Shown here: piece after piece, positions 3,683-36,529 of the stretch
How positions within the stretch are numbered: the first letter of the stretch is position 1
How the letters are laid out: the number at the start of each line of letters is the position of its first letter
Source of the DNA: Cyanidioschyzon merolae
Taxonomy: Eukaryota
DNA length: 64,000 nt
NCBI GenBank assembly: GCA_000091205.1
Contig: AP006501.2
Strand: one strand, 5' to 3'
Notes under the pieces: model-generated
The model's database searches: none
Told to the model about the DNA's origin: nothing
Seen by the model: the letters and a program-made list of their open reading frames with translations, nothing else
Translations under genes and position numbers: made by a program

Positions 3683-4705
3683 CTAGTCCGGCGCACTGAG
3701 CTTCTTGCGATCTTGCGGTCTTGCTACGAGAAAGACCTTGCGTTGCGCCACATTGAAGCCGACGATAGCGCCGCAGCGTTTGCAGCGCCGCTCGTCACGC
3801 TTTCTATCCGAAGCGCTCGAGAAAAGACAGGTCACATCGTTTCCGCAATTAGGACAGGGTCCCCGGACTACCTCCGGAGAGCCCAAATCCAAATAGCTCA
3901 GCATTCGTGGCGTCAGGTAGTTGCTGAACCACGCAGTTACGACAGCGATGACCACGAAGAGCACAGACGCTCGAACGGCGACCTGATCATCGAACGTTAG
4001 CTGAATATGGCCGAGACAGATGAGATCAAGGAGCGCAAAACCCAGGATACTCGATAGGCAAAGCAGCACGGCGGGCGCGTAAAGAAGCAGCAGCTTGAAC
4101 CGATCCTCCACTGCGTCTCCGAAAAGCAGATACATAAGTCGTTTGTCCATCGACGAATCAGACTTGAGGATGCTTTGCATGTCGAGGGTGCTGGTTCGAC
4201 TCGCTCCCAGCTTGGCCTTGAGTCCGTCGAGCTCTTCGGGACTTAGACGCAGCTCGTTCAGGAGCCGTCTGTCCATGTCGCGTTGCTGCGCAGCTTGAAT
4301 CCAAACCTTCTCCAAGTCATTTAACCGAAGAGAACTAGAACCTAAATGTTCCAACTCGTCACGGAGAGTCTTGAATTCGCCGTCGGTGAGAACCGGGTTG
4401 CCTTCATAGTATGAGCGCAGCGCTTCAATAAACAGGTTCTCTAGGGCGCCTCTGTACTCACCGTCGTTATTGCCGTCGATGCGCCGAATCCATAAATGGT
4501 CGTCGTTTTCGAACGGTTCTCGTGATATGCTCATATGGTACCGTCGTGGACGCGAGAGCAGTCGCACGCTGGCACCACGGCAAACGGGAAACCGCGCAAT
4601 ACCAACGGAACACGCAAACGGGGCCGCGCACCGTCGAAAAGGCACACCTATGGTGCTTGTCAGCCAACACAGCGGTGCGTTGGAGCGGGACCCGGGCCTC
4701 CGCAT
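3683..4705 (-). CDS. PGRL1: PGR5-like protein 1 (PGRL1), cyclic electron flow around PSI
   Basis: 340 aa ORF. It has two adjacent hydrophobic helices followed by a C-terminal GPCPNCG...CKRCG double-Cys motif, and an N-terminal FIEALRSYYEGNPVLTDGEFKTLRDEL block that aligns to plant/algal PGRL1 (QALQSFYYDGK...NEEFDNLKEEL; LKGPCPNCG...VKCTNCG). N-terminal ~60 aa are R/S-rich, plausibly a transit peptide. Confidence 0.82.
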   Translation of the reverse strand: MRRPGSRSNAPLCWLTSTIGVPFRRCAAPFACSVGIARFPVCRGASVRLLSRPRRYHMSISREPFENDDHLWIRRIDGNNDGEYRGALENLFIEALRSYYEGNPVLTDGEFKTLRDELEHLGSSSLRLNDLEKVWIQAAQQRDMDRRLLNELRLSPEELDGLKAKLGASRTSTLDMQSILKSDSSMDKRLMYLLFGDAVEDRFKLLLLYAPAVLLCLSSILGFALLDLICLGHIQLTFDDQVAVRASVLFVVIAVVTAWFSNYLTPRMLSYLDLGSPEVVRGPCPNCGNDVTCLFSSASDRKRDERRCKRCGAIVGFNVAQRKVFLVARPQDRKKLSAPD

Positions 4706-7789: not shown

Positions 7790-9303
7790 GACACACCTTT
7801 TAGAAATCTTAGAACAATTATCGTCACTTTTCCGCGCCTAGCACACTAGCGGCTACACGGGACGTTCGCATAGACGATCGTCTTGAACGGCCACGGTCGG
7901 TCAGCGGTAAGCGCTCAGGTTGCCGCATGCGATCGTAGGCGGGCTAGGCGAGGCGCCACGGTAGCTGCCTCACGAGTCTGGGTGCGGCGTACGCTTCTTG
8001 CGTTTGTGAACCGTGAATCAACGAGACTGGTGGTGGAGCTCCATGAGCATGAGTACATCATGCGGATACGATGATGTAGACTTTAAGAGCGCGCTCCACT
8101 GGTTGGCAGGAGAGCCCCGTAAAAGAAGTACCGGGAGAGAATGGGCGGGTACGTTTATCAGCTCCGAGCGGTATCCAGGGAAAGGTCATCGAAGCGCGGT
8201 AACGATGGAGTAACGCGACTGTCTCGATTACGGGTGTCGCTACCTGTCCTTGAGAGTCTCCGTGAATCCGTAATGTTTGTACAATAGCGTGGTAGGTCCG
8301 CAGTCCATGGAAAGCTCCTGTTCATCGCGAGTAGTATCTCTTTGTTTTGCAGATGCACAGACAATCGGTTGGATGCTTCGGCTTTAGTTGCGGGAGATCT
8401 GCACCCAGGAGAGTCATTTGCGCCAGCCATGCTCCATTCGCCCACGTTCTCGTGCGGTGCGAGTGTGGTACAACCGTTGCATGAGAGCTCGCAGCGTGCC
8501 CGCAGCGGGTGCGCATTGCGAGACCTTGATCCCGCTTCCCGTCTTGGTCTTGTGAAGCGGTTCCTGTAACAGAACGTGTCATGCTTTTGCTTTTCGTAAA
8601 AGGTGATCAACAGATCGCCATCTCCCATTGACCGCAAACACGTTCCAAGCATTCCGGTTTTTGGCGCAGCATGCACATACCCCTTTCTTTCCGTATTGCT
8701 TTGCCATCTGCGTACCGCAGTACGACTGGCCTAAAGTACGAATGCAGTCCTGCTTACACTGTTCAGAAAAGAATACATATCCGACATCCAATTCGTCTTC
8801 GATCTATGCGGTGTATCGCAGAGCGATGTCGATCCCTGCTATGCCTCGCGAACTAGCATTCGATTCTACACCGCGAAATTGGAATGAAATTGAGTTGAAA
8901 TTCTAAGGATGTTCACCGTGGCGGCCGCGCGGCGCCCAAAAATCTCCGGGCACAACGTCGCGTGGAGCGTCCGCCGCCGATAGCGCCACCGCCGCTGCCA
9001 CGTGTGCGGATTCGCTGCTTCTAGGGTGCACGCCTCTGCAACGGAACCTGTTCCACTGGATGCAGTCGCGGCAGCTGCAACTGCTACGTGGACGCGTTTA
9101 GGAGCGTTCTATGTGTTTCATGGTTGATTCCGTCATGATCGCCCACTGAGCATATTGGGACGAGAACGTTTGCCCCTCTCTCGTATTCTCAGTTCTGCTG
9201 GGCACAGGCAGTACTGCTTGAGCGTGTGCGGGACAGGCCCGAGCTGGGCGCTTCGAGGCGTTGAGGAGGAGCTCGGTGCCAGCGAGCGCTTCACGAGGGC
9301 GTC

Positions 9304-12300
9304 TTGAAAAGTTTTCCTGGTCTGGTGCGAGAATCTTCATTTATGGTGGCGGTAGGCAAGTTTCTCGTGAGGAAAATCCGTAGTTTTTTTGGCGCGGTTG
9401 ACCGCGCGCTCTTCTTCATTACGTGTTGGATCTCCGTGAACCCGGTACGCGAAACGAGCCTCTCTGAACAAGACGAGCTTGTCGATGGAGGAAACCTATT
9501 CCTGACTCGGCTGGAGAGCGGCCTAGAACCGAAGCTACGTCATTCTTCCGTACAGAAGATACGTGGTGATGAGGCGCTAGCTGGAGGCATCGCACCTGGG
9601 CACGATGTGTCAACCAAAGGGACATGCTCGGGGCCACATGACCTGCCCCAAAAGCCAAGTGATGCCGCGCGTTTTCCAACGTTTCGTGCTGCGCAGAAAG
9701 CGACGAAGGATGGACGGGGGCCGTCTCTCGACAAGCACCCGGTTGTGGACGGACGTTCCTCGCCAGCTGCGCACGGCGCGCGACCAAAGCATGCGCGTAC
9801 CCCCACGAGAAAAGTGTGGCGCCAACATCGCTTTCGACGTGTCGACGCTGATGCTGTCGACGATGCTTATCCCAGAAATAAAGCACCGGCTGCACCGAGC
9901 GAGACATTTTCCCGTACGGACACCAAGCAATGGATCCGAGAAATCCGGGATATCTACGCGAGTCGTATTTCGTTTCCGCGGCACAAGTACGAGGTATTCC
10001 GCCCTTCGCAGCTGAATTTTGTAGTCATCACGCTTTGGGGGCTCATCTTTGTAGCGGTAGCGCTCGTGATTGCTGTCATTATTTACACGCGCGCGGTGAA
10101 CTCCGATTACTTTCTTTATTCAACAACGTTTCTCTATGTGGCAACAATTGGCAGCATGACCGAATCTGCAATATCCCTTCTGCTTTACCTGTTCTTCTAC
10201 GCGCGAGTCGCCCTGGTGCCGGCACGGGAACGCACACGCATCCAGTACGTCATCGCTGCGATGACGCTGGTGCTCTTCTGGCAAACTGAGCCGTTGACTG
10301 CTCTGCTCCGACTCGCTGATAAGGGTCGACTGACAACCCGTGTGCCGCGAGTAGTTGTCGCGTTCCAGTTAGTAGGCAACTCTGCGTTTTACATCGGTAC
10401 CATTGGTTTCATGCTTGTTGTCTGCCACCTTTACCGAATTCGCGAAACGCTGCCTCTTAACTGGCTGATCTTCTTGGGTCCCAAACTTGTTCTCGTTTGC
10501 ACACTCCTGGCGCTCAGCTTTGTACTGTTTTTCGTTGGTCGTGTGATGCCGTCACGCTTGCCGTTGCTGTCGCTCATCGCTCTAGCTCGTGCGGGACGCG
10601 CAACAGGTCTCTGGGCTCGGAAAGCACTCAGCATCGTTGCGGTGCTTACGTTGTGTGAGCTCTACGCGCTCGTTGCGGTCCTGTACGAGATCCGCCGCAC
10701 CTGGCGCTGTTTGAACACAGAGCCGTACACCACGTCGCGGGCGCGACAACTCGGATTCCGGCTCTTTCTCTACACCACCGGCTTGGCGTATTTTGTTTTA
10801 TGGATACTCTTAATCCTTATTGTTTCCATTTGTCCTATGAGTTTCAGTATCGCTTACTACTACATCATGCTCTCATATGATCGGCTTCCATCCTTCTACA
10901 CCGACAACAGTCGAGTAGAACGCTTTCTTGCCTCTGTTTACTTCAATCCGCTCTTTTCGTCCTCTCTGTACTTTATTCTGAATTCCATCACCATCGCGAT
11001 AATGATTTGCAATGTACTGATTTACTTGCCTCCGGAGACACCCGCACTGTTCGCGAAAATCGTCTGTTGCCTCGCTACGAGCCGCAAAGACGTTCTGTCT
11101 AATTATCTGTGTTGTCGCGATGAGCCGCGACCGTTCTTCCGCTGGGGTCCACGCCAAACCTCCCACGGTACCGTAGATGCACCGCCGTCGATCGCTTCGT
11201 TGCCAACTGGACAAGGCGTGACGCGCTGCGACGCATACCCGGTCTCGTGTCCGATCGAGGCTCAAGTACAGGCACCGAACATCATGGCACCGGTGGGTTC
11301 TTCAAAGCCCGTTGCCGGAACTTCATTGGATACGCTGACGACGAATGATGCCACCATGGCGAGCACCAACGAAAACCAGTTGCATCGGGCTCAAGCAGGA
11401 CTCTGGAAGCCCAACGGGGATACGCCCTCGAGAGACTCTGGTACTGCGGGCGCATTAGCAACCCGTATACCCGTGTTGCGACGCTACGTGTTCTCTGTCG
11501 AGACCATGGTGGAGCAGTTCAACCTATCGTGGCTCGCCTACGTTCTAGATCCTGCAAGGTGCTCTGGGCGTTTCATCCAGTCGCAACGTTTCTGGCGCGA
11601 CTCGCTTGAACTCTTCTACGACGCCGCCACCGATACGCTGGGATACATCCTGGAGGCCGACGATCGCATCGTTCTTTCGTTCCGCGGGACTCGTTCCCGC
11701 CGCAACCTCCAAACAGATATGCAGACTCGTCTGGTGCCTCTGCGCTTCCCGAACGGGGATATGGATCACGCTCTCTATCAGTACCTGCTCCGTTGCGGAA
11801 AGTACTACAATCGAAAAGATGCCCGCTGGAGTCCAGTAATGCACATCTCCGATACGGCACTGCGACTAGAGCGGTACCTTCGATTTCGCGCTCGCTCCGA
11901 CCGACCGCGGGTGCACGAGGGTTTCCTTGCCAGCTACCTCACGTTGTGTGAAGCGCTTGAGCGAGCGCTGACCCAGCGCTATCAAAGGAATCCCCGGCCG
12001 GTGCTCATCTCTGGTCACTCGTTGGGCGGGGCACTCGCGAACCTCGCTGCGCTGCATCTCGCCATTCACCTGCAGCTTGGTCAAGACTCGTTGATGTTGA
12101 CGACCTTTGGCTCACCACGAGTAGGCGACCTCCATTTTGCGCGACTGCTGGACTATTTGGTGCCCATTCATTTCCGTGTGACGAATGCTGCCGATGTTGT
12201 GGCACGGCTGCCGTTCACGGGCCTCGGTGGATGGTTCGCCTGCGGGGGCGCAGCGTACGCCCACGCTGGAGTCCAGGTGCTCTTGAACAAGCATGGACTG

Positions 12301-12696
12301 CTGCGGGTGGATCCCTCGGTCGTTGAGCTGGAGTTCCAGTTTCGAGTTGGAGCCTACATTGAGCCCCATCTCAAGCGCGGATATAAGCGCAGCATCGAAG
12401 CCTGGGCGCAACGCTCCGGGAATGACGGATGGCAACCCGACTTGTGGGTATTCCCCAAGAAGAAGAGGATGTTCGGCCTTGGAAGCGGGCCGCAAGAAGA
12501 GAACGACATTGTGCTGGATACAGGTGAAGATGAAATCAAAGAAGATGAAAGCACGAGCAAGGTTCATGAAATGATCGAAGCGGAAGCGGCACTTGAGGAG
12601 AATATGGACGTTCTCGCCAATGAAGGAGAAATTCGAAACCTTGTGCGCGGCATGACTTGGCGTGTGCTTTCTCAGGGCTGGTTGTCATCGTCCTGA
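9304..12696 (+). CDS. multi-pass membrane protein fused to C-terminal class-3 (fungal-type) lipase domain
   Basis: 1130 aa ORF. Residues ~235-560 contain about 8 predicted TM helices (e.g. FVVITLWGLIFVAVALVIAVIIY, LNWLIFLGPKLVLVCTLLALSFVLFFV). The C-terminal part has the lipase_3 signature VLISGHSLGGALANLAALHL with flanking Asp/His-containing segments. The only Met candidates before TM1 are at 9304 and 9343. Confidence 0.75.
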   Translation: MKSFPGLVRESSFMVAVGKFLVRKIRSFFGAVDRALFFITCWISVNPVRETSLSEQDELVDGGNLFLTRLESGLEPKLRHSSVQKIRGDEALAGGIAPGHDVSTKGTCSGPHDLPQKPSDAARFPTFRAAQKATKDGRGPSLDKHPVVDGRSSPAAHGARPKHARTPTRKVWRQHRFRRVDADAVDDAYPRNKAPAAPSETFSRTDTKQWIREIRDIYASRISFPRHKYEVFRPSQLNFVVITLWGLIFVAVALVIAVIIYTRAVNSDYFLYSTTFLYVATIGSMTESAISLLLYLFFYARVALVPARERTRIQYVIAAMTLVLFWQTEPLTALLRLADKGRLTTRVPRVVVAFQLVGNSAFYIGTIGFMLVVCHLYRIRETLPLNWLIFLGPKLVLVCTLLALSFVLFFVGRVMPSRLPLLSLIALARAGRATGLWARKALSIVAVLTLCELYALVAVLYEIRRTWRCLNTEPYTTSRARQLGFRLFLYTTGLAYFVLWILLILIVSICPMSFSIAYYYIMLSYDRLPSFYTDNSRVERFLASVYFNPLFSSSLYFILNSITIAIMICNVLIYLPPETPALFAKIVCCLATSRKDVLSNYLCCRDEPRPFFRWGPRQTSHGTVDAPPSIASLPTGQGVTRCDAYPVSCPIEAQVQAPNIMAPVGSSKPVAGTSLDTLTTNDATMASTNENQLHRAQAGLWKPNGDTPSRDSGTAGALATRIPVLRRYVFSVETMVEQFNLSWLAYVLDPARCSGRFIQSQRFWRDSLELFYDAATDTLGYILEADDRIVLSFRGTRSRRNLQTDMQTRLVPLRFPNGDMDHALYQYLLRCGKYYNRKDARWSPVMHISDTALRLERYLRFRARSDRPRVHEGFLASYLTLCEALERALTQRYQRNPRPVLISGHSLGGALANLAALHLAIHLQLGQDSLMLTTFGSPRVGDLHFARLLDYLVPIHFRVTNAADVVARLPFTGLGGWFACGGAAYAHAGVQVLLNKHGLLRVDPSVVELEFQFRVGAYIEPHLKRGYKRSIEAWAQRSGNDGWQPDLWVFPKKKRMFGLGSGPQEENDIVLDTGEDEIKEDESTSKVHEMIEAEAALEENMDVLANEGEIRNLVRGMTWRVLSQGWLSSS

Positions 12697-19655: not shown

Positions 19656-22472
19656 ATGGTGAGTGCAGACGCCCCTGCTTCCCGGCGAGTGTGGCCCCAG
19701 CGTTTACAGCCAACTGCGAGCCATATCGGTGGTTGTGCTGAGCTCATTTCAACGTTCTTCGGTCCCGCTGGGAAGCCAGACCAAGACAACTTTGGCACAA
19801 CATTGAAAAGTGGATCGATTCGCCCCACGCACAAACTGGAAGAGGCAACGACTTCAAATGCTGGACGAGGGCGGCGTGGCGTGCTCCAGCCGATCGCGCT
19901 CGAGAACACGCCCTGTGCGACGGCTTCGCACCCGAGGGCGCTTGCCGCTGAGTCGGCCCATGAGAACAGCGGACTCTGGGCCGGTGATCTCGTACTAAGT
20001 CCCGGAACAAAGGCGACACTGCAGCGGGCAGCGCTGCTTTCTCGAAATGCGAACCGAGAAGCACCGATCCCGGCTAACGACCCTGCTCCGAGTGCTATGG
20101 TGCGTGCGCCAACAGGCCAGTCGGACGCACCGCCCTCACCGCCACCTGAGGAGGACTTCATCGATACGTCGGTGGTGGACGACAGCTCCTCTTTGGAGAG
20201 CAATATGCTCATCCAGACCACGTCGTTCACACAAACCACTATAATTTTATCGGAGCGCAAACGAAAAACAACCAGAAACCGTAACGAATCTCCTCAGCGA
20301 ACGCACAATGGGTGTGAAAATGTCAGGCTATCCCAGCAAGATTTTCAAGCAGCACAAATCCTCAAGGATCAGAACAAGAGCGATCATACGAACAGCTTGG
20401 CGGTGACAATCGGTGACTCGAGCGCCCCGTCTTTGACTGGCATCAGCAGCCCGGGTCGTCCCGACACGCTGGAGCAGCCCAGTCTGGGTGACAAAAAAGA
20501 GGGTTCCAACCGCCTGGAACGCACCAAGGAGACGCTCAATGCCACAGCCGATATGTCTGCGATTCTTGCTGTTCACGCAGGATTGGTTCAAAAGTACGCC
20601 AACATGCCGCCATGTGACAGCGATGCCCTGACACGTGCGAAACACAACGAGTCCGAATTCTTGATGGACAACAGCATCGCTGCGAAGCAAGAGAGCTGTC
20701 TGTCCACAATGTCGCCAATGCTGCACGGCAATGCTGTACACACGGTATCGGCTGCATGGGGCGCGTCACCGGTAGTTTTCTGGGAGTCATCGGCGCTGCG
20801 CAGTCGCAGGGAGTCCCGCGGCCCGCTTACAATCCTGACGTGGAGAAGCAGGCAGCAACTGCGTGATAACAAGCTTGCTCTTGCCCAGGTTTCACCGGAC
20901 GCCGTGCTCAATGCACGTGCGCCTGTCGCAAGTTCAACGTCATCGGACGGTATAGCGCCGCTCTCTGGAGTCGCCCTGGACGCAACGCATCACGTTCAGC
21001 GTGTGGAAGTTGCTCGGAGCGCGAACCTGGCGCCGACGAGTGCAGTCCACGTTTCCGTTCCGCGACGTGTTGCGCAGGTGGTGTCGAGTCCAGCAGATGC
21101 TTCGCCACCAGAAGAGCGCCGACGAGACCGCAGCAGAAAAACGCTTGAGCGGCGTACCGGGTACCTCGCGGACGAGTACGGCAGCGAGGCAGTTGCAGCA
21201 CTGACGCTTGCACCAGCAGCCGTGACCGAGGATCAGGAACACGGTCTCGATCATGAAACTTACGGGCACACCAAGACTGACCGCATTCCAGTGCAGAAGC
21301 GGCAAGGCGCTTCGGCTGTGGCCCTGAAGTCCCATGGCGGCATTGTGCGGCGACCCGAGGTCTGCACGAACGCCGACGCCCCTGCAAACAAGCGCAGTGG
21401 ACTTGCACTGCCAGCGACCCGCGGGTTTCCAGAGCGCACGTCCGATGCAGCCGAACCCGTACGCAATAGGGATCTGTCACCTCGCGCTTGCAAAGACGGA
21501 ACCAAAGACCCTGTATCCAGCCCCAGAGGCCGTGCATTGCAAAGGCATCGAGCACTGGAGCCGTTAACCCTTCCGCCGCAGGTCTCTAGCGCAGCGCAGA
21601 AGACTTGCATTCCTCCCAAGACATACCAAGGTTTGCCACCCAGAATATCAAGACGTCCTCCAGGGGATGAAAGAGCGCCACCGCGCTTGCCAGCGTTCTC
21701 AAAGCACCTTGAGCATGAACGCTATCGAGCCTCGGCTGAACAAGCGCTGTATCGAGTGAGCGTCGACGCGGCTGCTGCGCGTGAGCGGCCTCCACCACGA
21801 CGCCATACGCTACCCCCAGGGGCGGCGCACCGACCGCCCACGGTCGCAAAGACGCCGCACTTGGAAACAGAGCGGCGGGCGAGACTCCGAGCTGCCGCCG
21901 ATGCCGCCGCCAAAGCTGCTTCCATTCATCAAAGTCGCACTCAGGGTGCGCGTGAAACGCAGAAACCCGCAAACAGCTGGAAACCGCGCATCACCGTGCC
22001 GCAGACCCCAAACGTGCTCCGCCATACGAGTGTCTGCCGACGCGAGCGCCCAAAAACTAAGGAGGAAATGGATCTGGAGGAAATGGAGCGAGGTCGACAG
22101 GCAATCCTACGAATGCGGGAAGCAAACGAGCGTTCCCGCCGAAGATGCCTCCGCGTTCAAACGTGCACCGTTTACAGAGGAGCATTAGACGAGCAAGTCA
22201 TGCACGGATCCGACGACTGTGCCAGTGCGGCACCAGGCATGAGCGGGCAGTCCTCGCGTGCACGCTCCGTGGGAACGGGGGCACTATTCCCGCCGTGGTT
22301 CGACAAGCCTTCGACGCCTGAACCTCGAAGGCGCACCATGCCGGCCCCGAGCGACACCACCTACCGCACAGCCTCTCCGCTAGATGCCAACTGGCAGACG
22401 TCCTCTCCGACGAAATGCGCACATCCAGCAGCACCAAGCACCCTGGGGTTATTCCGCAAATGGAGATCGTAA
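19656..22472 (+). CDS. hypothetical low-complexity (Ser/Ala/Pro/Arg-rich) protein
   Basis: 938-codon uninterrupted ORF, very unlikely by chance at this GC. Codon third-position bias matches the confirmed genes. No recognisable domain. Charged coiled-coil-like C-terminal stretch (KEEMDLEEMERGRQAILRMREANERSRRR). The start ATG is immediately followed by GTGAGT. Confidence 0.4.
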   Translation: MVSADAPASRRVWPQRLQPTASHIGGCAELISTFFGPAGKPDQDNFGTTLKSGSIRPTHKLEEATTSNAGRGRRGVLQPIALENTPCATASHPRALAAESAHENSGLWAGDLVLSPGTKATLQRAALLSRNANREAPIPANDPAPSAMVRAPTGQSDAPPSPPPEEDFIDTSVVDDSSSLESNMLIQTTSFTQTTIILSERKRKTTRNRNESPQRTHNGCENVRLSQQDFQAAQILKDQNKSDHTNSLAVTIGDSSAPSLTGISSPGRPDTLEQPSLGDKKEGSNRLERTKETLNATADMSAILAVHAGLVQKYANMPPCDSDALTRAKHNESEFLMDNSIAAKQESCLSTMSPMLHGNAVHTVSAAWGASPVVFWESSALRSRRESRGPLTILTWRSRQQLRDNKLALAQVSPDAVLNARAPVASSTSSDGIAPLSGVALDATHHVQRVEVARSANLAPTSAVHVSVPRRVAQVVSSPADASPPEERRRDRSRKTLERRTGYLADEYGSEAVAALTLAPAAVTEDQEHGLDHETYGHTKTDRIPVQKRQGASAVALKSHGGIVRRPEVCTNADAPANKRSGLALPATRGFPERTSDAAEPVRNRDLSPRACKDGTKDPVSSPRGRALQRHRALEPLTLPPQVSSAAQKTCIPPKTYQGLPPRISRRPPGDERAPPRLPAFSKHLEHERYRASAEQALYRVSVDAAAARERPPPRRHTLPPGAAHRPPTVAKTPHLETERRARLRAAADAAAKAASIHQSRTQGARETQKPANSWKPRITVPQTPNVLRHTSVCRRERPKTKEEMDLEEMERGRQAILRMREANERSRRRCLRVQTCTVYRGALDEQVMHGSDDCASAAPGMSGQSSRARSVGTGALFPPWFDKPSTPEPRRRTMPAPSDTTYRTASPLDANWQTSSPTKCAHPAAPSTLGLFRKWRS

Positions 22473-23258: not shown

Positions 23259-24986
23259 GATTCAAGTTGATGACGATGATGGTGACGCTGGTGATGGTAC
23301 TGAAGCCGTCCAAGACGCGTTGGTAATGCGCACCCGACAATGCTGGTACGATCCTCGATTACGAGTCGTGCCGCTTTGGCGTCGACGGGACGGGCGTGAC
23401 CCCGGCGAGGGTGTCAGAGTCTGAACAATAGCGTATATTTTGGTTTGTTTGAATCTTTTTTCGGACATATCTTGACAGCGCTCATCGCGTCCATCGCAGT
23501 GCGGCCGAATCCCGTGGCGGTGCATGATGCTGGCGCCCGTCCAGCGTTCACAAGTATGAAGCAGCGCGCCCGGGCACGCGCTGGAATCCGCAATGAGGGT
23601 CGTCGTCGTCGTCGTCGCCCAGGCATGCTGCGGCTGGTCGGGTACCGACGACACTGGGGTAGCGGTATCGCCAACACTGCGATCACGTGGCTAGCTGCTG
23701 TAGTCACTGTCAGATATCGCGTCACGTCTCGGGCAGATGCGGTTGCACAGGCGGGGACTTTCCCGAATACAGGGGGCTTGCTTTCGTGTTCAGATGCATT
23801 GATGGAGACGATGTATGCGCGAACTGGGTCTCGCCTTTCGTCGGTAGGTATGCGGTGATTCGTCGACATTATCAGTTTTTTTGGACTCAAGAGTGTTGAC
23901 CAATTTGGGCGTGAGCGGTATCCCGAATGCAGCGGATCTTCCGCTCGAATACCCCCGAGCTGCGTCGCTCCAGCGCCAACCGATGCTCGGTTGCCTCTTC
24001 TTGGTCGACTCGCCAACGCGCACATGCATACCTGCACATCGCATCCTGAACCCTTGAGGCCATCCATTTTGTCTGGCAGGTGTGTATCGAGCAGCTTTGC
24101 AACTCCCTGCGGTTGTGATCCGCGCACTCCACTGCACACTGCTGTCAGCGGTGCATGGAAGATACACACCCTAGAATCTGCTGCAGCGAGCTGCGAAGCT
24201 TTCAGCGTCAGGCGAGGGAACGCCTCGTGAGCATGCGAGGCCCGACAGGCTTGCCAAATGGACGTCGACGTCTGCCTGGCAAACACCAGGCATGCGCCCC
24301 ACCGAGATATCTACCTGTTCCTATCACTAGTGGCGACAGAGGGAGACAGAAAGACGCTGATTGGGCTTGTCTGATGCAAGAGTTGGGCATCGTCATCAAG
24401 TGAACGCAGCAACTAGCTACGTATCGTTCCAAGCGTATCGAGCAGTCACGTGATCAGTCATTTGCGTGGATCGAACCAACACATCCGCAAGCATGCCGAT
24501 ACCAGCCACGCTACATATAGCGAGGGCGATGCTTCCCAGTCCATATAAACGTTCTATCAAACGAGAAAATAAGAATACAAGTAACTCGCTCCCAAGCTCG
24601 CATTGCCGAGCGCCCAGGCGCGATGTCGTTCCGTATCGTACAGAGACTGGAGCTGTGCGCTGCTGAGCGCATTCACGGCATATCGCTTTTGCGCCTGCGA
24701 ACTGGGACCGTTCATGGCTGGGAATCACACGCTCAATTGCGGTACTGAGTGCCCATTCACTGCCTCTGCTGTGGCTGGAGCGAACGAGTCTGTTGAGCGT
24801 CTCGGTTTCCAACTGCCGCCCGGAGGCCGAGCAAAGGCGAACACCCCGACCCTGAGGCGAAGCGCTCGGTGCCTGCTGTCTTCGAGCGAGCACAGGTGCG
24901 GTACCTGGTCCAGTCAGCTAGACGTCCAGAAAGTGAAGCGTTGCAATACGAACCGTGTTCGACGACAGCGCTTCGCGGGTGTTCGA

Positions 24987-26971: not shown

Positions 26972-28360
26972 TTAAATAGACTGGCGAATCTCGTCCCGTA
27001 ATCGTCGCTCAGTGTCTCGAGCAATCAAGCGATGGAATCTAACGACATAATAGGCAACGACACAGCGCAAGATCGGGAGAAGCGCGATCGATAGCACCCC
27101 AAAGTTGCCTGGAGCGAAACCTGCGTTCAGTGCACCCATCAAGTACCCATCAAGACCGAAAGTGATCCAGAATTTTCGTTTGGTGATGCCTCGCAGTGTC
27201 ACTCTGGCGACCTCATCAGCTGGCAGAGCAGCGCCAGCGGACATTTCCGTGCACGCTCTGGTGGCAGGCGGCTTGCGTCGATTTTCCACGTCAAAGCCGC
27301 GTGTCAAGGTATCCGGCGGAAATACCACCGAAACACCAATACCGTAGGGCCTCCCCTCATATACCAGCGTTTCTGCGAGACCGCGCAAGGCATACTTTGC
27401 TGGTGCGTAGGCGCTGTATCCGAAAATCGCTGCGAACGCTGCCATCGACGAGAAGAACACGATGTGTCGCGGTCTTTCCGAGCAGTACGGCACCCGTATT
27501 CGAACATCACCGCGTCTGTGCGTATGCTCCGCGACGATTGCCTCAAGAACCTCGCGTTTCCATTCACGAAAGGCAGCCTGAGCGACCAGAGCTGCAGACA
27601 TATAGTTGCACTCCATTTGCGCCCTAAACTCTTCCACTGTGAACTCTTCGAAATAACCCGGTAGTGCACCGCCAGCACAGCAGATAACAACGTCATAAGT
27701 CTCGCGTTTGTTCCCAAAGACACGGGCAACACCCCCTGGAGTTGAGACGTCTGCTTGTATTGTTTCAATCACCGGTTGGTGTCCCGAATCGCTGCCTTGA
27801 GCTGCCTTGGGGCGGCTCGAGAGCAGCACCTGCTTGGCAGTTTCCAGTCGCGACGCGTCCCTTCCTACGATAGTGAGGTGTCGCGGCGGCCCTGGTGAGA
27901 CACTAGCCTCACAGAGCATGCGCGCTATCTCGAAACCAATGCCGCTCGTCCCGCCCGTGATCAGTACCCGCAGGTTCTCCCACCGAATCGGTTGCGAACA
28001 GTCCCAGCGTTTCCTCTTCTGAGGCTTGCTCCGAAGGCCGTCGCGGTCAGCGCGACTTGATTGAAATATTCGGAAGCGGTGGAAGAGTCCCTGAATCAGG
28101 GCCATCAGGAAAGATGCAACCACAAACGCAAGCAGTAAACAGAGAGCGTTCCCCGCTCGTCGTTGCGCTTCGGTGAGCAGTTCCCGTGCTGCTCGGAGAG
28201 GCGGTGCGTCGAGCCAAGACGGCGTACGTTCTAGAAAAGTGAGCTTTGGCAAGCTTCCCATCTGCAGCGACACGAGAAGACCCGGTGCTCGGCAAGGAGT
28301 CGCGGTGTCAGCCACAAGCGAGTCTCTACTTTGTACAACCTGAACAGAGAGGCGTAACAC
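26972..28360 (-). CDS. KDSR: 3-ketodihydrosphingosine (3-dehydrosphinganine) reductase, SDR family
   Basis: LITGGTSGIGFEIA (Rossmann TGxxxGIG), YSAYAPAKYALRGLAETL (catalytic YxxxK), then PPDTLTRGFDVENRRKP...LGLDGYLMGAL...FAPGN aligning to the human KDSR C-terminal region (PPDTDTPGFAEENRTKP...LGSDGYMLSAL). N-terminal TM helix present. The upstream Met choice (28360 vs ~28261) is unresolved. Confidence 0.8.
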   Translation of the reverse strand: MLRLSVQVVQSRDSLVADTATPCRAPGLLVSLQMGSLPKLTFLERTPSWLDAPPLRAARELLTEAQRRAGNALCLLLAFVVASFLMALIQGLFHRFRIFQSSRADRDGLRSKPQKRKRWDCSQPIRWENLRVLITGGTSGIGFEIARMLCEASVSPGPPRHLTIVGRDASRLETAKQVLLSSRPKAAQGSDSGHQPVIETIQADVSTPGGVARVFGNKRETYDVVICCAGGALPGYFEEFTVEEFRAQMECNYMSAALVAQAAFREWKREVLEAIVAEHTHRRGDVRIRVPYCSERPRHIVFFSSMAAFAAIFGYSAYAPAKYALRGLAETLVYEGRPYGIGVSVVFPPDTLTRGFDVENRRKPPATRACTEMSAGAALPADEVARVTLRGITKRKFWITFGLDGYLMGALNAGFAPGNFGVLSIALLPILRCVVAYYVVRFHRLIARDTERRLRDEIRQSI

Positions 28361-28481
28361 CTCCGTCTATTTGGCGGCGACTCCGCCAGGTCTACGACGC
28401 CTCCCATCCCTGGTACTTCAGCGCACCTGCGCCACAAATGGCGCGAAGCGCTCGGCGTCGCCGCAGGACACCGGCAAGCTG

Positions 28482-28622
28482 GTGTGCCATAGGAGTGTGG
28501 TATAGGCGTGTGTGCCACAGGAGTGTGGTATAGGCTTGTGCTATAGGAGTGTGTGCTATAAGGGTGTGCTATAGGCTTGTGCTATAGGCTTGTGCTATAG
28601 GCTTGTGCTATAGGGCGTGTGC
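28482..28622. repeat. minisatellite, ~11 copies of a 12-13 nt unit gtgtgctatagg(c/a)
   Basis: Direct read ...ggcttgtgctataggcttgtgctataggcttgtgctatagg... with degenerate copies upstream. Confidence 0.88.
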
Positions 28623-30499
28623 AATGAAGGTAGAGCACGGAGCAGGCGTTTGGTTTCTGTATGTCGACGTGTTTTCCGGGCTTCTTGTACCTGTCCAGTC
28701 CTGGGAATGGAAATGCAATCGTAAGTTCATTCGAATTGATTCATAGGTCGAGGATGCTTGGTGGTGTTTTTGGAGCGAGTCCTTGGACTGCATGCAGCTG
28801 GAATTCGTTGCGTCACCAGGATCAGGATGATTCGCAATAGAAGAGACAAAGAGCTAGGAAACTGACCGATATCATGATCCAGTGTTTGCGAAGACGTCTC
28901 GGCTCTTCCTGTTTCCTTACGTAGCGTATGTTGAAAAATCACGCATTGTGCACGTTTTTGATCGGTCTGTTTCAAGGCTAGTCATTGCCACAGCACTGCG
29001 CGTCGCTGGGCTGACGAGGAAACGAAAACTCGACTTGGTGCACTGGCGAGTGCTTCACAAGCTCATGGCAAAATTTCACTGAACGTGTCATGTCGAATAA
29101 TTATCGGATTCGTTCGAAGGACAAAAGCTCATTTTTTTGTGACTATTGACGAAACTGGATTCGACATCCGTACGCTACCGCTTACGAGATATGCAGGCAG
29201 TGGTTCTCGTCTCTTCTAATTGCATGGAAATTGGTCTTGGATTAGCACGTGGGTCATTGCGTCGATTGGCTCGAGTGGGGCGTGCGTTACCGCGTTCCAC
29301 GATGAGCAGGTAGACGGATCGAACTTGCTAGACTTGATCTCCAGACCTGACTTTTCTTCCCACACTAGTTTCAACACAGACAGCACCGCTTTCCACGAAT
29401 TCTAACTCATATGGGACATTGTGCGCTCGCATATCCAGCTTACAAAGTACTCAGCATCGGATTACCCAAAAGGAGCTCGTCATTGGAGGGCACGGCACCG
29501 GGTACGGAAACGGAGGCGGACATCGAATGGAGTCCTCTGCACCAGACATAAGCATGCACAGAACGATGAAGCATCCCGTCGCGTGTCAACGAGCAGACCT
29601 CACCGGAGCAGGTGCCGTGGACATAATGGAATACCTGACCAAGGTCGAGTGTCGACGGTTCTCCAGCGCACCAAAGTTGTATACAAAGATGATGATGAGA
29701 CTAGCAAGCGGTGCGTAGCTTGCAGCTTTTGCGAGTGCATGAAATGCATGCACAACAGTCCGAAGGACGGGAAAAGAGGACAAAAATACCGAAACGAGTT
29801 ACTAACAACCAACGTGCTACCAGTTTCTTTCCTCCTCTTCGGTGAGCGTTACAAGAGGAAAAAGTTTTCCCAATTCTCAAAAGGTTACCATCTAGGCGGA
29901 AGGTCTCGCGAGCCGGACGAGCCTGCCGGGCATACGCTCTGTGCGCCTCTGCAGCGACCGATGCTGTAGTGAGATCGCCGCTGCCCTTCGGCAACGCAAC
30001 TCAGTCTGGGACTCGCAGCGAGTATGCTGCATTTCAGCGTCGCGCAGGTCGCAGAGGACCCCTAGCATATCGCATCGCGCTGTCGCAGGCAATACGTCTT
30101 TCTGCGCATCTTGCAGGCTCCCTGAATGACAATAAATCCCGATTCCATGTCGTGCAGAACACGCTTCGAGCCGGCGCCCTCAGCGGTATGACAACGCCGT
30201 TCTGTCTCCGTGATGCATCGGCATCAGCGGTGTAAGCGTTAAGGCGCGTGCTCGAAGTGGCACTCGGCGCACGATAGAACGTACGAAACGAACAATATAC
30301 CCAAAACGAAGTACAAGTAATGGAACTAGAAGGTAGGTGCTTCATCATGGGCGATTTCCCGAAAGCCGATACCTATCCCGCAATCTGGGATCCATGGTCC
30401 AGTTTAGACGTTTTGTCATCGGAAAACGAATCGACGCTTAGCGAGCGCACCTAGGAGATCTGGCAGGCATGAGACACGACGCGTACGGTGCCGTTGTTG

Positions 30500-32958
30500 A
30501 AGGGAAACGCGATTTTGATCAGTAGCGTGTTATTCAGCTGGAAAAGTTGGATTTCCGTTCAGGACGTAGCAACGTATAGTTTTTCAGTTCATTTGTGTTT
30601 CAAAACTCAAACAAGTCTAGTCAAGTGTTTTTTTCGTAGTATATTGGAGAAGCGTTCACAGAGTGCTTCTTTTCAAAAAAACTAAAAGAAAAGGAAAGTT
30701 ATGAAAAACTGAGTCGACGATCCTGGAGGCCCAGGGTCGCTGGCTGCCGGAGATGAACACATTGTTTCGAGTCCAGAAGAAAGAGGAAGAGAAGAAGAAC
30801 CGAAAGAAGGAGGCCCGACGCCAATGGCAGCAAGAAAGACGACGATACGACGAGATGGTGGTGAAAGCCTGTCTTCTTAATTATATCAAGGATCTCTACA
30901 AGCACAAATTGCAAGAGGACATCCAAAACCGTGTCGACTCGTACTCTAAGAGTATTGTCAAGGCCTCGTCAGGACTGATGCATTTGGCGAGGGAGATGTA
31001 CGGAGACGTGGCGCACATGGAAACGGTCGAGATTCCTGACGAGTTTTTCGACATGACCTTTCTTCGTCACCTGATGCTTGGTACAGCGAAAGCGCGGAAG
31101 GAAAATGTGCTAGTGCATGCCCTCCACGAAAACTTCGCGGAATTCCGCTTCGAGGGTAATCGATACAGCGGTGACGGAAATATTTACACCTACGGGCGAT
31201 GAAGTACCTCACGAACCTGAAGAACCATTTGACGATGAACCTCAAAAGTTTCACGATACGTTCCGTGTTTGGACTCTACCCGGACCCATATCGCAAAGGG
31301 ATATGGGCCATCATCAATGGCATCACGAACGATCGCTTTCATGAACAGGAGATCGAATTCTTCGACAAGAAGACATTACACAGGAGAAAGAATGAAGCTT
31401 CTGTGATCTGCGCGGTCATACAAGAGTACCATGCAGTACTGGGGCTGGCGAATCCAGCAGACAAGATATCAGCTACGAAAAAAGATAAGAAATAATGTTA
31501 TCACCTTATCCTGCGCTATTTTGTGTTTTTGGACCGAGAACTCGAACGCAAGGCCGAAAGGCAGCTGAGTGGGGGAAAATGAAGAGTTGTTGGAACGGAA
31601 GGCTGCCCTGATGGGGAAGTGCTTCAACGTCGTTCCGTTGTGCAGCATCAAGTCACATTTTGTGAATATCGACTCCGGAGTCCTTCATGGCATCGTGAGA
31701 GAGATCAGTCCGGAGTTCGATGTAAGGAAGATAGAGTCCACCGACGAAATGCGGGAGACGTTCTAGAAAATTATCCTTAATTTCAAACGTCTCAAAGTGA
31801 GCAAGCAAAACATATTCACTGGGATGATCGAAACCGATGGAGTAGCCATGTGTGTACACTATCGGCGGTTGAAAACAGATCGGCCAGTTCCGTCCTCGGC
31901 TTCGCCCGTGACGAAGGATGAGGAAAACAAAGAGGTGGATCCTGCGACGCAGAAGGTGCATGAGAACGACTTTGTCGTTGGCGCACACCCCGGAAACACA
32001 AATATCGTAACCATCGCTGTGCCCAAGCGTCCGGTAGATGGTACTGACGGCAACTTATGTCAGAAAGACATGCGGCTTTTAAAGCTCTCGAGAGCGAGAT
32101 ACTATCGAGAATCCGGTATGATGAATGGAAGAAAGAAAACTGAGATATGGAATGCAGGATTGAAAGAGCACTTGGGAGCTTTGAGCGAGGTGACGAGCCG
32201 CGGAACGGACTTTCAGGCTTTTCTGAAATTCATGGAAGTTCGCTTTGCTCATTGGGAGGCGCTGTGGGAGGAGTATGCAAAGCCCCGGTGGGCTCGTTTG
32301 CGTATGAACTTGTATTGTGGTAAGCAGCGGGCGTTTGCCAACTTTTCAATCAGTTGAGTGCCTTGAAGGAGGATCAAAGTCAGAGGTTCGTTGTGGCATA
32401 CGGAGCAGGGCGTTGGAAGACCCAAAAAGGTACTACGCCAGCTCCAACGACGAGAACGTACAAGGAGTGTGCACGGCGTTTCGTTACGATACCTGTATGT
32501 GAGTTCCGAACGTCCTATACATACCATGAACTGGGCTGTACACTTCAGAGAGTGGAGATAGAAAAGTGCCAGAGGAGCCCCGAGGATATAGCAAAGTGCG
32601 GACCGCTGACGGAAGAGCAAATGGAAAGGAGGGCGAAAGTTCGTGGCCTACTCGCATTAGTAAGTACAACTCCCAACGGCAAGAAACGGATGGAGTTTGT
32701 TAACCGAGATTTTAACGCCGCTATCAATATACGGAGATGCGCGGTGATGGAGAAAAGACCTCCAGAGCTGACAAGTGAGAATTTTGTTGGACAATCTCTT
32801 AAAGTGGAACTATATGAGAAAAAATTTGAACCAGCCGTGGGTGGCCGGTCGAGAAGAACGGGGAGACGACTGCACGTTAGACGGAGACGTCTTGTCTAGG
32901 GCGGGTTTCTCGCCACTACTGTAAACCGCTTGCGGCAGCGTTTTTCTTTGAAAGGCGT
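30500..32958 (+). mobile_element. TnpB/Fanzor-like (OrfB-family) element relic, copy A, inside an AT-rich island
   Basis: Five consecutive same-strand ORFs (30753..31202, 31199..31495, 31569..31766, 31797..32357, 32354..32899) together encode a ~680 aa protein. It has a K/R-rich NLS-like N-terminus and a C-terminus ...KCQRSPEDIAKCGPL...KRMEFVNRDFNAAINIRRCAV, the Cys-rich finger plus RDxNAAxNI RuvC-III motif specific to TnpB/Fanzor. Local GC is well below flanking DNA. A 3' block of ~60 nt beyond the stop is shared with copy B and ends near 32958. Confidence 0.55.
30753..32899 (+). pseudogene. disrupted TnpB/Fanzor-like nuclease gene
   Basis: Segments are joined only through a frameshift at 31199-31202, a frame change between 31495 and 31569, a single in-frame TAG at 31764-31766 and a 1-nt frameshift at 32355-32359. 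The last is shown by copy B reading straight through the homologous spot (GQQRELAAFVQSAHPETRLQ). No GT...AG pairs restore the frame. Residues that would align to RuvC-I/II (GAHPG, GAGRW) appear substituted. Confidence 0.55.
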
Positions 32959-33052
32959 GCGGTGGTATCACGTGCACAAAGCCACACGCTATTGCCTTCT
33001 CGTGCGTGCTGCGTTTCAATATTTATAGCCGAGTTGGCCCGCTTCGATTCCG

Positions 33053-35391
33053 TTGCTGAAGCCGCGGTCGATAAGCGCAGAGCTGATGAGCGATGTTTCG
33101 CTCCAAGGTGCGGAAAACGTCTCTCCTGTGCGTGAGCAGTTTCAGCAGCCTACGTCTAGTGCAGCAGATCCGCGAGAGCCCGCGGTCGGCAGCCGAGACT
33201 CAGCCGGCTACCCCCGAGAGCACAACGTTACCCCAGGTGTTCGGTCTAGTTCGGGTACGCAGCATGAGCGTCAGCGGACTGCGGCTTTAGCGGCCTGTGT
33301 TCGAGCGCTCGGCTGTTTCGGTGGTGCGCGAAACTCTCAATGGACGCAGGCCCAGGCGAAGCGGGAAACGACGACAGGCGCTACGGACCAATCAGCGGAA
33401 CCGTCGGTCCCGTGCGAGTCGAAAGTCGGGTCAGCAGTTGCGACTGAAAATACTGAGGACGTGCTGGGTGCTGTTGACGGCGACCACGGCGCCCCGGCCG
33501 ACGTGGACGCGGAGCGTTCTTCAGAGGTTTCTTCGGCGAGCGAGGAGCTTCCATTTCGCTCCCTGTATCGGCGGGCGCAGGTGAAATGGGCCCGCCGGCG
33601 ACTCGAGAAGCAGGTTCAGAAGCTGCTTGCATTTACCTCCACACAGCTTAGTAACCTGCAGCATGTTCGTTCCGGACAAAAGTTGGATGCCGAGTTTGCG
33701 ATCCTCGCACGAATATATACCAATGCACATATCGACGAGGATTTCGCAAGGTTTAGTCGTCAGGAGTTTCGAACCTTCGCGGAGCACTTGCCGCTGTTTC
33801 TGAATTACTTGTTGCATTCGCGGCCGCTCGATGCGCCGGCGACGAGCGCAGCGCAACGCAACGCCTGGCGAGAAGTTGCCTCTTCGACGAGAGAGCGCAT
33901 CCGCCGCCATCAGAATACTCGCAAGCTAATCGAGACGCATTTGTTGCGGCGCTGTAGCGAGTCTGTGCGTTTCGCCCTATTTGTTTATTGGTATTTGGAT
34001 GGTTGTCTGCAGCTTGGACCTGAATCGGACCGGAAGGATACCCTCCGAATTATTATTGAGATTGAGAACATCATGTCGAGGAGCATCACATGCGCGACGC
34101 CCTCTTCACAGGTCGCTGGGGCACGCCCCCCGGTCAAGTCGTTCATGGCGTCGGATACGCCGGACGCGGCGACAGCGGACTCGGCCCCGGCGACATGGAG
34201 CCCCGGTGCTGCGCTTGCGGCTCCCGCCGGTGAAGTGCTCAGCCCAGCAGACGCTGCCGACGTTGGGTCTGTTGAGAGGATCGTGCACCAGCGCGCGATC
34301 GTCCATGAGATCGGTAACGAGTCTCGAGGCGAGGGCGTCTTCAGAGATCGCATGCTGCAGGATGAGACATGTTTGGCAGGCATCCTACCTGCAGAGCATA
34401 CGATCGCAGTGGATCTCGACGCGGATGCAGCTGACTGTGCAGTGCGCTCTGCGGACTGCAGTTTTCCAGAGGCGCCTGGCGTTCAGTCAACGACAGAACA
34501 AGAGCCGCGCATGCTCGCCCAGTCAAGCTTGATGTCGAATACGCGCGTTTTTCCACGAGAATCCATAGAAACTGGCCCTGAACGGGAGATAAGTTTCGCA
34601 TATGTTTCCCGTGGTAATCTTTTTCATGCACAGCTAGATTTTATGCGCGCGCTCATATCCATCTCCGAATTGGCGCTAGGCCTGAATCGATCGCAAAGAT
34701 CACGATTCGTCGTGAGGGAACTAGGCCGCCTGAACGCGCTTGTGGAAGCAGAGCGGCGATATGTTTTTCTGCCAACGGAGCGCATTCCACACCGGGTGCT
34801 TCGCATCCTCGCAGACGAGTCACATGTGTTCTCGACAAAGGAACATGCGCCGTACCTGGCCATTGTCGAAGTGCAGGATCTGGAGTCAACCAAGCTCGCA
34901 GAGCGCGAGCCCCGCAAGACATTGGCACGCACCATTGGCGATTGGCTGCATCGGGCAGGAGAGTATCGCCCGCGAGCGCCCCGCTCCGAACAACGACATA
35001 CAATGACCTGGTTCGCTTCACCACGCGGCACCGAAGCCGTCAAATCCCCTGAAAGCGGTCTCGCAGCAGCAACATCACCAGCGACGACTCCCGATCCACC
35101 GACAAGCCCAGCGTCGCGAAGCGCACCCGCTGTCGATACGCCTTCACCTGCAGGAGAGGAGCTTTCACAGAGCCGTGGCGGGAAAAACGCCTCCGTGTCC
35201 GAGAAACGCAGTGCACGCACGCGATTGCACGCACAGGAGCGTCACGCACGGAATCGCGCCCTGCATGGCGTCGCGAATGCGGCGGCGCATTCACTGACGT
35301 TTCCTGGCCCTAATCAGGCGGAGGCACCGTTCCCATTCTCAACGCGAACAGGCACGGATGCCGCTGAGCTACCACCGATGACCCATCGGTC

Positions 35392-35429
<38 letters not shown>

Positions 35430-36529
35430 GTCTACGAGCGGACGGCGTCGGTTCCAGTCATCCAAATCTTGAGACTGCAGCTGCTTCGGCGACGGGTGAC
35501 GGGATGACTGCATCGATGCCTGCATGTAGCGAAGCACAGGATGCGCGGGATCTTGGAGCGGAACTGGAATCTGGTGAAATCAAAAACGCTTTGGCGGAAT
35601 CGCGTGAAGCATGCTCGACACCGACCAGTGTTGGCAGCGATCGTTGGCGACGTCTCTTTGGGGAGCGCTGGGCTGAAAGGGTTCAGCGTTTGCAGCAGAC
35701 GTCACCATTTGGCCGCATGCCCGGTTGGCGACTGACCTCTGTAATCGTGAAAAGCAAGGACCAACTGCGACAGGAAATGTTTGCAACCATGTTGATTGCT
35801 GAGTTTGCGCGCATCTTTGAGTCAGCTCGTCTTGACGTTTGGCTATGTCCGTACCGCATTGTTGCAACTGGGGCCGATTGCGGATTCGTGCAAGTAATCC
35901 CCGATGCGCCCTCCATTGATCAGATCAAGAAAGCTTTCCACGGTAACATGACGCTTTCTGGCTATTTTGAGGAACGGTTCGGAGCGCGCGGCAGCGCTAC
36001 ACATCGCTTGGCGGTTCGCAACTTTGTGAAAAGCATGGCCGCATACTCCGTTATCACATATCTCCTGAACATCAAAGATCGACACAACGGAAACCTGCTC
36101 ATTGATGCTGAAGGCCATATCATCCACATTGACTTTGGATTCTTCTTCACCAATTCACCTGGTGGCAATATCGAGTTCGAGAAGGCTCCCTTCAAACTCA
36201 CCTGGGAACTTGCCGATGTGATGGGCGGCCCCGACTCGAACGCGTTCCGCCTATTCCGACGACTCTGCGGGCATGCTTACGCCGAGGCCTGTGCGCATCG
36301 AAACAAGATCATGCTCATGGTAGAGTTCATGATGATGGGAAATGAGTCGCTGCCGTGCTTCCGCGGCGGGGCCGACCTCACCCTCGAGCAACTGCGAGAG
36401 CGGTTCATGCCGCGCCAGACCCGTGTCAAACGCATTGCGCACATGAACGCGCTTATCGATCGAAGCAGTAACCATTGGACGACGAGATTTTACGATCGCT
36501 ATCAGCGGTGCTGTACTGGAATTTATTAG
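33053..36529 (+). CDS. phosphatidylinositol 4-kinase, PI4KB/Pik1 type
   Basis: C-terminal catalytic domain ...[24 protein letters not shown]...FKLTWELADVMGG...LPCFRGG...FYDRYQ aligns residue-by-residue to human PI4KB ([24 protein letters not shown]...FKLTTEFVDVMGG...LPCFHGS...LYDGFQ). Poly-Gln tract encoded by (CAACAG)n at ~35393-35428. The exact start Met is uncertain. Confidence 0.85.

Follow-up and report, generated by a model that had tools for sequence, protein, structure and literature searches.

A stretch of 64,000 nucleotides from contig AP006501.2 (assembly GCA_000091205.1) of the red alga Cyanidioschyzon merolae, which was analyzed at its full length and is called the window below, contains a gene for a predicted membrane protein that joins a Wntless-like eight-helix module to a class-3 lipase domain. 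The gene is an uninterrupted open reading frame (ORF) of 1130 codons on the + strand (9304..12696), exactly where an initial annotation, made from the sequence alone, had placed it. Residues are numbered throughout from the codon at window nucleotide 9304, which is aa 1. After a disordered N-terminus come the membrane module with its eight helices (aa 234-574), then a variable linker, and finally the class-3 lipase (aa 723-1055). We read the product as a single integral-membrane lipase, in which a bundle resembling Wntless (WLS) positions a cytosolic lipase and is probably coupled to it. Taken as a whole, this reading seems to us moderately probable. Our confidence is high for the architecture and the fold assignment alone, while a mechanism that couples the two parts is given slightly less than an even chance.

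Membrane-tethered class-3 lipases, namely the diacylglycerol lipases (DAGL), and Wntless-like seven-transmembrane (7TM) proteins are both known. No description of a fusion of the two was found in the literature searched, which agrees with the expectation of the initial annotation that such a protein had not been described in algae. The catalogue of eight putative triacylglycerol (TAG) lipases by Mori et al. 2016 has no link to the window gene.

Membrane module

The membrane module together with its juxtamembrane segments covers aa 219-604 (9958..11115; this and all other features of the protein are on the + strand). A Kyte-Doolittle scan gave seven strong and one or two weak hydrophobic segments in every ortholog. 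The AlphaFold2 model of aa 219-604, based on an alignment of 25 sequences, consists of eight long helices that lie within aa 234-574 (pLDDT 82.7, pTM 0.84), with the weak segment forming the third transmembrane (TM) helix. Thus the count of about eight hydrophobic helices in the initial annotation holds. Its assignment of the membrane part to the N-terminal two-thirds of the protein has to be corrected: the module occupies roughly the middle third, and aa 50-204 are predicted to be disordered.

The closest relatives of the module appear to be Wntless (WLS/GPR177/Evi) and the GOST proteins (TMEM87A/B, GPR107/108, GPR180, TMEM145, TMEM181; PF06664). The predicted fold is nearer to WLS and TMEM87A than to G-protein-coupled receptors (GPCRs) or opsins. 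WLS was the best structural match for two independent models and with two programs, and the three best Foldseek matches were all WLS entries. From 267 to 270 residues of the module superpose on the eight-helix WLS. About 35 more residues are aligned to WLS than to TMEM87A, an excess that would fit the extra N-terminal helix ahead of the 7TM bundle in WLS.

Sequence relatives of the module point to the same family. We searched 1.84 billion representative proteins with a hidden Markov model (HMM) profile built from only three cyanidiophyte module sequences. At E<=1e-3 the profile matched 45 proteins, nine of which reached E<=1e-10; the wider family appeared at E 1e-10 to 1e-16. Aligned together with the window protein, these matches make a set of 46 sequences. 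Lipase_3 was present in 31 of the set, and the Pfam family PF06664, “Wntless-like, transmembrane domain”, in seven. Two relatives that the cyanidiophyte-only profile finds, P0013 (E=1.8e-10) and P0017 (E=1e-9), score 36.6 and 34.4 bits against the WLS-like_TM profile, the gathering score of which is 28.3, and cover its positions 3-235 of 247. The family set comprises 154 collected proteins; the family alignment has 126 sequences, and the consensus and family HMM were built from 133. The consensus of these 133 members matches WLS-like_TM with 43.7 bits (E=2.7e-11). Profile matches of the relatives and the predicted fold are thus two independent lines of evidence that place the membrane module with the Wntless-like (WLS/GOST) 7TM family.

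The red-algal protein differs from the described members of this family in two respects. It has a C-terminal enzyme, which is found on no described GOST protein. In addition, the loop between TM1 and TM2 is only about 8 aa long, so that the defining feature of GOST proteins, a luminal GOLD/beta-sandwich domain (PMC9711517), is absent. This loop is short in most of the family too.

A group of paralogs (P0031, P0045, P0139, and P0144) carries between TM1 and TM2 an S/T/P-rich insert of 150-190 aa with N-glycosylation sequons, at the position of the luminal GOLD-like domain of WLS. We considered the insert as a possible GOLD domain and rejected this assignment, since it has no Pfam match, is rich in S, T, and P, and has a disordered or mucin-like look. 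Its composition and sequons are consistent with a luminal or extracellular location of the TM1-TM2 loop.

Lipase domain

The class-3 lipase domain of alpha/beta-hydrolase type covers aa 723-1055 (11470..12468). Pfam PF01764 (Lipase_3) matches aa 790-972 with a score of 92.3 bits (cut-off 22; E=3.3e-26), and the fold was found to be that of the fungal-lipase type. The nucleophile elbow GHSLGG is intact at aa 904-909 (12013..12030) and contains the nucleophile Ser906. Both the domain and its elbow had been recognized in the initial annotation, which had also called for a check of the Ser-Asp-His triad. The triad is present and conserved. Ser906 is invariant in the family alignment of 126 sequences. 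Asp964 (12193..12195), the catalytic acid, is aligned to the aspartate of the DxVP motif of fungal lipases, and His1022 (12367..12369), which lies in the context H-x-x-x-x-Y, is the catalytic base as judged by position and motif; each of the two is conserved in 96% of the family. The residues H871, G873, and F874 of the HxGF motif are likewise invariant. From its sequence, we predict that the domain is a catalytically competent class-3 lipase.

Plant EDS1, PAD4, and SAG101 use a lipase-like domain as a non-catalytic scaffold, and EDS1-family proteins do occur among the structural and sequence matches of the domain; with the Ser-Asp-His triad conserved in the family, we rejected such a pseudo-enzyme as highly improbable.

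An enlarged insert (aa 815-868; 11746..11907), formed by two helices around a disordered loop, separates the FRGT strand of the domain from its HxGF motif. We take its place to be that of the lid of fungal lipases. Fungal class-3 lipases (from Rhizopus, Rhizomucor, and Fusarium, and also the Aspergillus feruloyl esterase A) are soluble and secreted, and their lid is short. In contrast, the red-algal enzyme is predicted to be cytosolic and membrane-tethered, its insert at the lid position is about 45 aa longer, and it has a C-terminal helical extension. The extension is a partly conserved pair of helices (aa 1082-1127; 12547..12684), which follows an acidic stretch.

DAGL-alpha and DAGL-beta resemble the window protein in having a multi-pass N-terminal membrane region and a cytosolic Lipase_3 domain, and the window protein likely acts on membrane glycerolipids as well. 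The N-terminus and the catalytic domain of DAGL lie inside the cell (PMC2173631). One could therefore regard the window protein as a DAGL ortholog in which the helices of a four-helix anchor have been over-counted, as it combines Lipase_3 with N-terminal TM helices, an even number of these, and a cytosolic catalytic domain. We find this hardly credible. AlphaFold2 predicts eight confident helices, which superpose on the eight-helix WLS over the length given above, and at least seven strong hydrophobic segments are present in all orthologs. No Lipase3_N or other DAGL-type N-terminal match was obtained at E<=1, and the membrane parts of the two proteins have no detectable sequence relation. The catalytic domain, too, is nearest by sequence to fungal TAG lipases and the Aspergillus feruloyl esterase A (E ~1e-12) among the solved relatives in a comparison set that does not include DAGL. 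On the basis of helix count and fold, the four-helix DAGL-type anchor was rejected, and the view of the initial annotation that the module is unlike such an anchor stands.

Fusion of the two domains and its distribution

The TTG codon at 9304 is a mechanical start of the listed ORF, which is preceded by an in-frame stop at 9262-9264. The first in-frame ATG is found at 9343 (codon 14). For these reasons the eukaryotic product is probably a protein of 1117 aa (coding sequence 9343..12696), and its alignment with the orthologs extends from end to end. In DNA of 55.9% GC, a run of 1130 stop-free codons would arise by chance with a probability of about 1e-19; the two remaining forward frames have 46 and 31 stops over the same ORF. 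The nearest proteins are a JGI entry with 99% identity, a protein of Cyanidiococcus yangmingshanensis with 52%, and one more with 51%.

Among the 154 family proteins, the membrane-module HMM matches 153, and the lipase elbow is present as well in 132. The remainder are mostly fragments. The fusion is thus near-obligate across red algae (132/154). All family members with an organism name come from red algae. They belong to the genera Cyanidiococcus, Cyanidium, Porphyra, Pyropia, Porphyridium, Erythrolobus, Timspurckia, Rhodosorus, Compsopogon, Purpureofilum, Chondrus, Gracilaria, and Agarophyton, which we take to represent six red-algal classes. Several paralogs per genome are present in Porphyra and Porphyridium. 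The restriction to red algae rests on one exhaustive search with a divergent cyanidiophyte profile, and members outside Rhodophyta are conceivable. In the source databases the only names given to the proteins are “hypothetical protein”, “Fungal lipase-type domain-containing protein”, “Lipase domain protein”, “Phospholipase A1-II 1”, or “triacylglycerol lipase”. None of these annotations tells of a Wntless-like 7TM part joined to a lipase, but a few entries do bear both Pfam labels as precomputed matches.

The two halves could in principle be encoded by two genes or transcripts, one for a membrane protein and one for a lipase, that abut in one frame. Poor conservation of the linker (aa 605-720; 11116..11463), which is variable and predicted to be disordered with pLDDT below 50, would agree with this, and so would the existence of a stand-alone module gene in Cyanidium caldarium. 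However, the frame is kept open across the linker: it has no in-frame stop there, compared with one to four stops in each of the five other frames. The same continuous and collinear ORF is present in three cyanidiophytes at 51-52% identity. No in-frame ATG occurs between codon 661, the last one listed, and the start of the lipase domain. The members that carry both halves include ORFs derived from transcriptomes: in the MMETSP transcript assemblies of Erythrolobus, Compsopogon, and Timspurckia both halves are in one ORF. As two-domain members occur in transcriptome assemblies, a single mRNA is indicated for these relatives. In view of the ORF continuity across species and of the transcript-derived homologs, we rejected the two abutting genes, to which we assign a very small probability. 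The evidence favors one transcript, rather than the separate membrane and lipase transcripts that the initial annotation had considered.

The stand-alone membrane module of Cyanidium caldarium is protein P0005 of 528 aa (L001 6001-7587, JANCYW010000003.1). The 3' end of its gene overlaps a downstream HhH-GPD gene on the opposite strand, and no lipase-like sequence was detected within 6 kb of the P0005 gene. Of the 24 module positions with the highest conservation, 16 deviate from the family consensus in P0005, but only 6 in the lipase-bearing cyanidiophyte orthologs. The additional losses are Q314, H375, R378, P393, K394, T466, Y475, F485, F488, and P511. Such a pattern of losses is what we would expect if the conserved cytosolic face of the module works with the lipase.

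Topology and conservation

Over the 126 aligned members, the loops 2-3, 4-5, and 6-7 contain on average 4.1, 2.2, and 6.9 K+R residues versus 0.4, 1.1, and 1.7 D+E residues. The loops 1-2, 3-4, 5-6, and 7-8 are about neutral. According to the positive-inside rule, the basic loops would place both termini, and hence the lipase, in the cytosol. WLS has the same orientation with both the N- and C-terminus inside.

The protein begins with a moderately hydrophobic helix (aa 12-40; 9337..9423; pLDDT 62-77) whose conservation is limited to cyanidiophyte orthologs. The region that follows (aa 50-204; 9451..9915), the disorder of which was mentioned above, is basic, poorly conserved, and probably cytosolic.

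The most conserved residues of the module gather at the cytosolic ends of the helices. TM1 (aa 234-265; 10003..10098) is the extra helix ahead of the 7TM bundle, as in WLS, and is separated by the short loop from TM2 (aa 274-304; 10123..10215). The weakly hydrophobic TM3 (aa 312-327; 10237..10284) is preceded by the conserved cytosolic motif R301/T311/Q314. TM4 (aa 349-378; 10348..10437) ends in the conserved cytosolic motif H375-x-Y377-R378, and TM5 (aa 387-410, to 412 in one model; 10462..10533) starts with the conserved F390..P393-K394. TM6 (aa 439-472; 10618..10719) has a membrane-embedded glutamate, Glu452, which is conserved in 87% of the family. The most conserved stretch of the module is the cytosolic TM6-TM7 loop region (aa 466-488; 10699..10767) with the residues T466, L470, Y475, R479, Q482, G484, F485, R486, and F488; T466 and R479 are invariant in all 126 sequences. 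TM7 (aa 479-509; 10738..10830) is followed by the conserved P511.

After TM8 (aa 553-573, to 574 in one model; 10960..11022) comes a cytosolic juxtamembrane segment (aa 575-604; 11026..11115), which opens with the invariant L575-P576 and forms short helices similar to helix 8. It contains the Cys-Cys pairs C588/589 (11065-11070) and C603/604 (11110-11115), both invariant in the three cyanidiophyte orthologs. These pairs are possible S-palmitoylation sites.

The full-length AlphaFold2 model has a pTM of 0.69, though approximately 370 of the 1130 residues are disordered; we estimate that randomly oriented domains would give a lower value. Given the definition of pTM, such a value would need both folded domains to be placed in one frame, and the model thus suggests a defined interface between them.

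Proposed mechanism and alternatives

In our model, the eight helices form a GOLD-less bundle that is a homolog of the membrane-spanning part of Wntless and GOST proteins and would cross the membrane so that the N- and the C-terminus are both cytosolic. The bundle would be connected by a flexible linker to a cytosolic class-3 (fungal-lipase-type) hydrolase with the intact triad Ser906-Asp964-His1022. Like the four-helix DAG lipases, the hydrolase would presumably act at the cytosolic leaflet, cleaving the acyl esters of glycerolipids of the membrane, for instance diacylglycerol or phospholipid. How strongly the bundle is conserved, and where, together with the decay of this conservation in the paralog that lacks a lipase, leads us to think that it is not just an anchor. 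With its conserved cytosolic face, the bundle may dock the lipase domain, its own helix 8, or both. In WLS and TMEM87A a hydrophobic cavity open to the bilayer holds lipid (PMC9711517). By analogy with these two proteins, a lipid-accessible cavity of the bundle may bind lipid and couple substrate access or lipase activity to the membrane module.

Several points weigh against this proposal. The window module (aa 205-616) has no Pfam match at E<=10, a Pfam scan of the whole window protein gave no PF06664 match at E<=1, and sequence-profile searches of PDB chains with the 3- and 25-sequence module alignments gave no match. The window protein is thus too divergent from Wntless and GOST proteins for a direct Pfam match, and its link to WLS rests on transitive homology and the predicted fold. 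The comparison with a lipase-less module is based on one paralog. The cavity of WLS and TMEM87A opens to the luminal or outer leaflet, whereas the lipase studied here is cytosolic, so a direct hand-over of substrate between the opposite sides is not obvious. Finally, the conserved cytosolic face could be a surface for the packing of helix 8 unrelated to the lipase, by analogy with TMEM87A, whose conserved cytosolic surface merely packs its own helix 8 (PMC9711517).

A more specific form of the proposed coupling, which we put forward only tentatively, treats the WLS-like bundle as a lipid-handling module. It would capture a specific lipid or sense the state of the bilayer, and would gate or feed the lipase via the conserved cytosolic face with T466, R479, R486, H375, R378, and K394. 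If so, the Wntless/GOST superfamily would gain its first enzyme-coupled member, a “7TM-gated lipase” found throughout red algae. It would also provide evidence that lipid binding, and not Wnt transport, was the ancestral job of the 7TM fold.

In one alternative, the module would do no more than target and tether an ordinary lipase to a given membrane, and the two domains would not be functionally coupled. We regard it as unlikely, while acknowledging that the long, variable, and disordered linker and the close resemblance of the lipase domain to free-standing fungal lipases would suit a passive anchor, and that in DAGL a simple TM anchor serves this end (PMC2173631). A bundle of eight helices, with the polar T466 and R479 invariant in all red-algal classes, is under far more constraint than such an anchor needs. 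The near-obligate fusion and the decay of the module where the lipase is missing, as seen in one paralog, also speak against it.

It is still less probable that the protein is a ligand-regulated receptor-enzyme, in which the 7TM part senses a ligand or lipid, switches the lipase in cis, and so yields a lipid second messenger. The initial annotation had considered a true 7TM receptor and compared the protein with the GPCR-bigrams of oomycetes and other protists. This comparison is valid in part: in both cases an N-terminal 7TM region of GPCR-like fold is followed by a C-terminal intracellular catalytic domain of lipid or second-messenger chemistry. It fails with respect to the parts themselves. 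The described partners in bigrams are PIPK, INPP, AC, PDE, and TKL, and a lipase is not among them (PMC6033456). The membrane module here is of WLS/GOST type, has eight helices, and belongs to no recognized GPCR family, with no GPCR Pfam match at E<=1. WLS and TMEM87A are clearly better structural matches than any GPCR. Neither DRY nor NPxxY is found at the expected positions, where the helix ends read HLYRIRE and NVLIYLPPE. The protein lacks an extracellular ligand-binding domain, and it has no known ligand. For GOST proteins in general, G-protein signaling is undemonstrated and their structures appear incompatible with it, helix 8 blocking the coupling site (PMC9711517). Moreover, C. merolae has been cited as a genome in which the GPCR signaling system has for the most part been lost (PMC3971589). 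A role as a true receptor is therefore less likely than a role in lipid handling or positioning; direct regulation of the lipase in cis by the 7TM bundle is conceivable.

For the study of Wntless and GOST proteins, the red-algal family provides a GOLD-less, enzyme-linked, and non-metazoan relative in an organism without Wnt; to our knowledge, red algae have no Wnt cargo. It bears on the role that the 7TM cavity had before it came to serve animals as a carrier of lipidated Wnt. In algal lipid biology, the family represents a conserved, red-alga-wide group of lipases that are candidates for membrane-lipid remodeling or turnover. Cyanidioschyzon is genetically tractable, and the coupling hypothesis is therefore directly testable.

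Genomic setting and additional observations

The neighbors of the gene are ordinary eukaryotic nuclear genes and, together with its closest protein relatives, fit an intron-poor cyanidiophyte red alga. They include, as uninterrupted ORFs, genes for bromodomain, ankyrin, PfkB kinase, PI3/PI4-kinase, CCT chaperonin, isocitrate/isopropylmalate dehydrogenase, PHD-finger, and CRM1/exportin proteins. Four other ORFs of the window have no Pfam match at E<=1e-5: 3683-4705 (-) of 340 aa, 19656-22472 (+) of 938 aa, 23414-24286 (-) of 290 aa, and 56571-57566 (-) of 331 aa.

The GC content falls to 0.49-0.53 at window positions 28000-33000, compared with about 0.56-0.58 elsewhere, and the GC skew is positive there. 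A 13/28-bp tandem repeat lies inside this low-GC stretch at 28482-28622. Short + strand ORFs (29421-29969, 30753-31202, 31797-32357, and 32354-32899) precede the PI3/PI4-kinase ORF at 33053-36529. Together with it they could constitute one larger kinase gene split by frame changes or introns.

An ORF of 574 aa at 37728-39452 (+) combines a radical-SAM domain with DUF3641 (PF12345). We assume that this architecture is that of ArsS-type enzymes of arsenosugar biosynthesis, which would be notable in an alga of acid hot springs.

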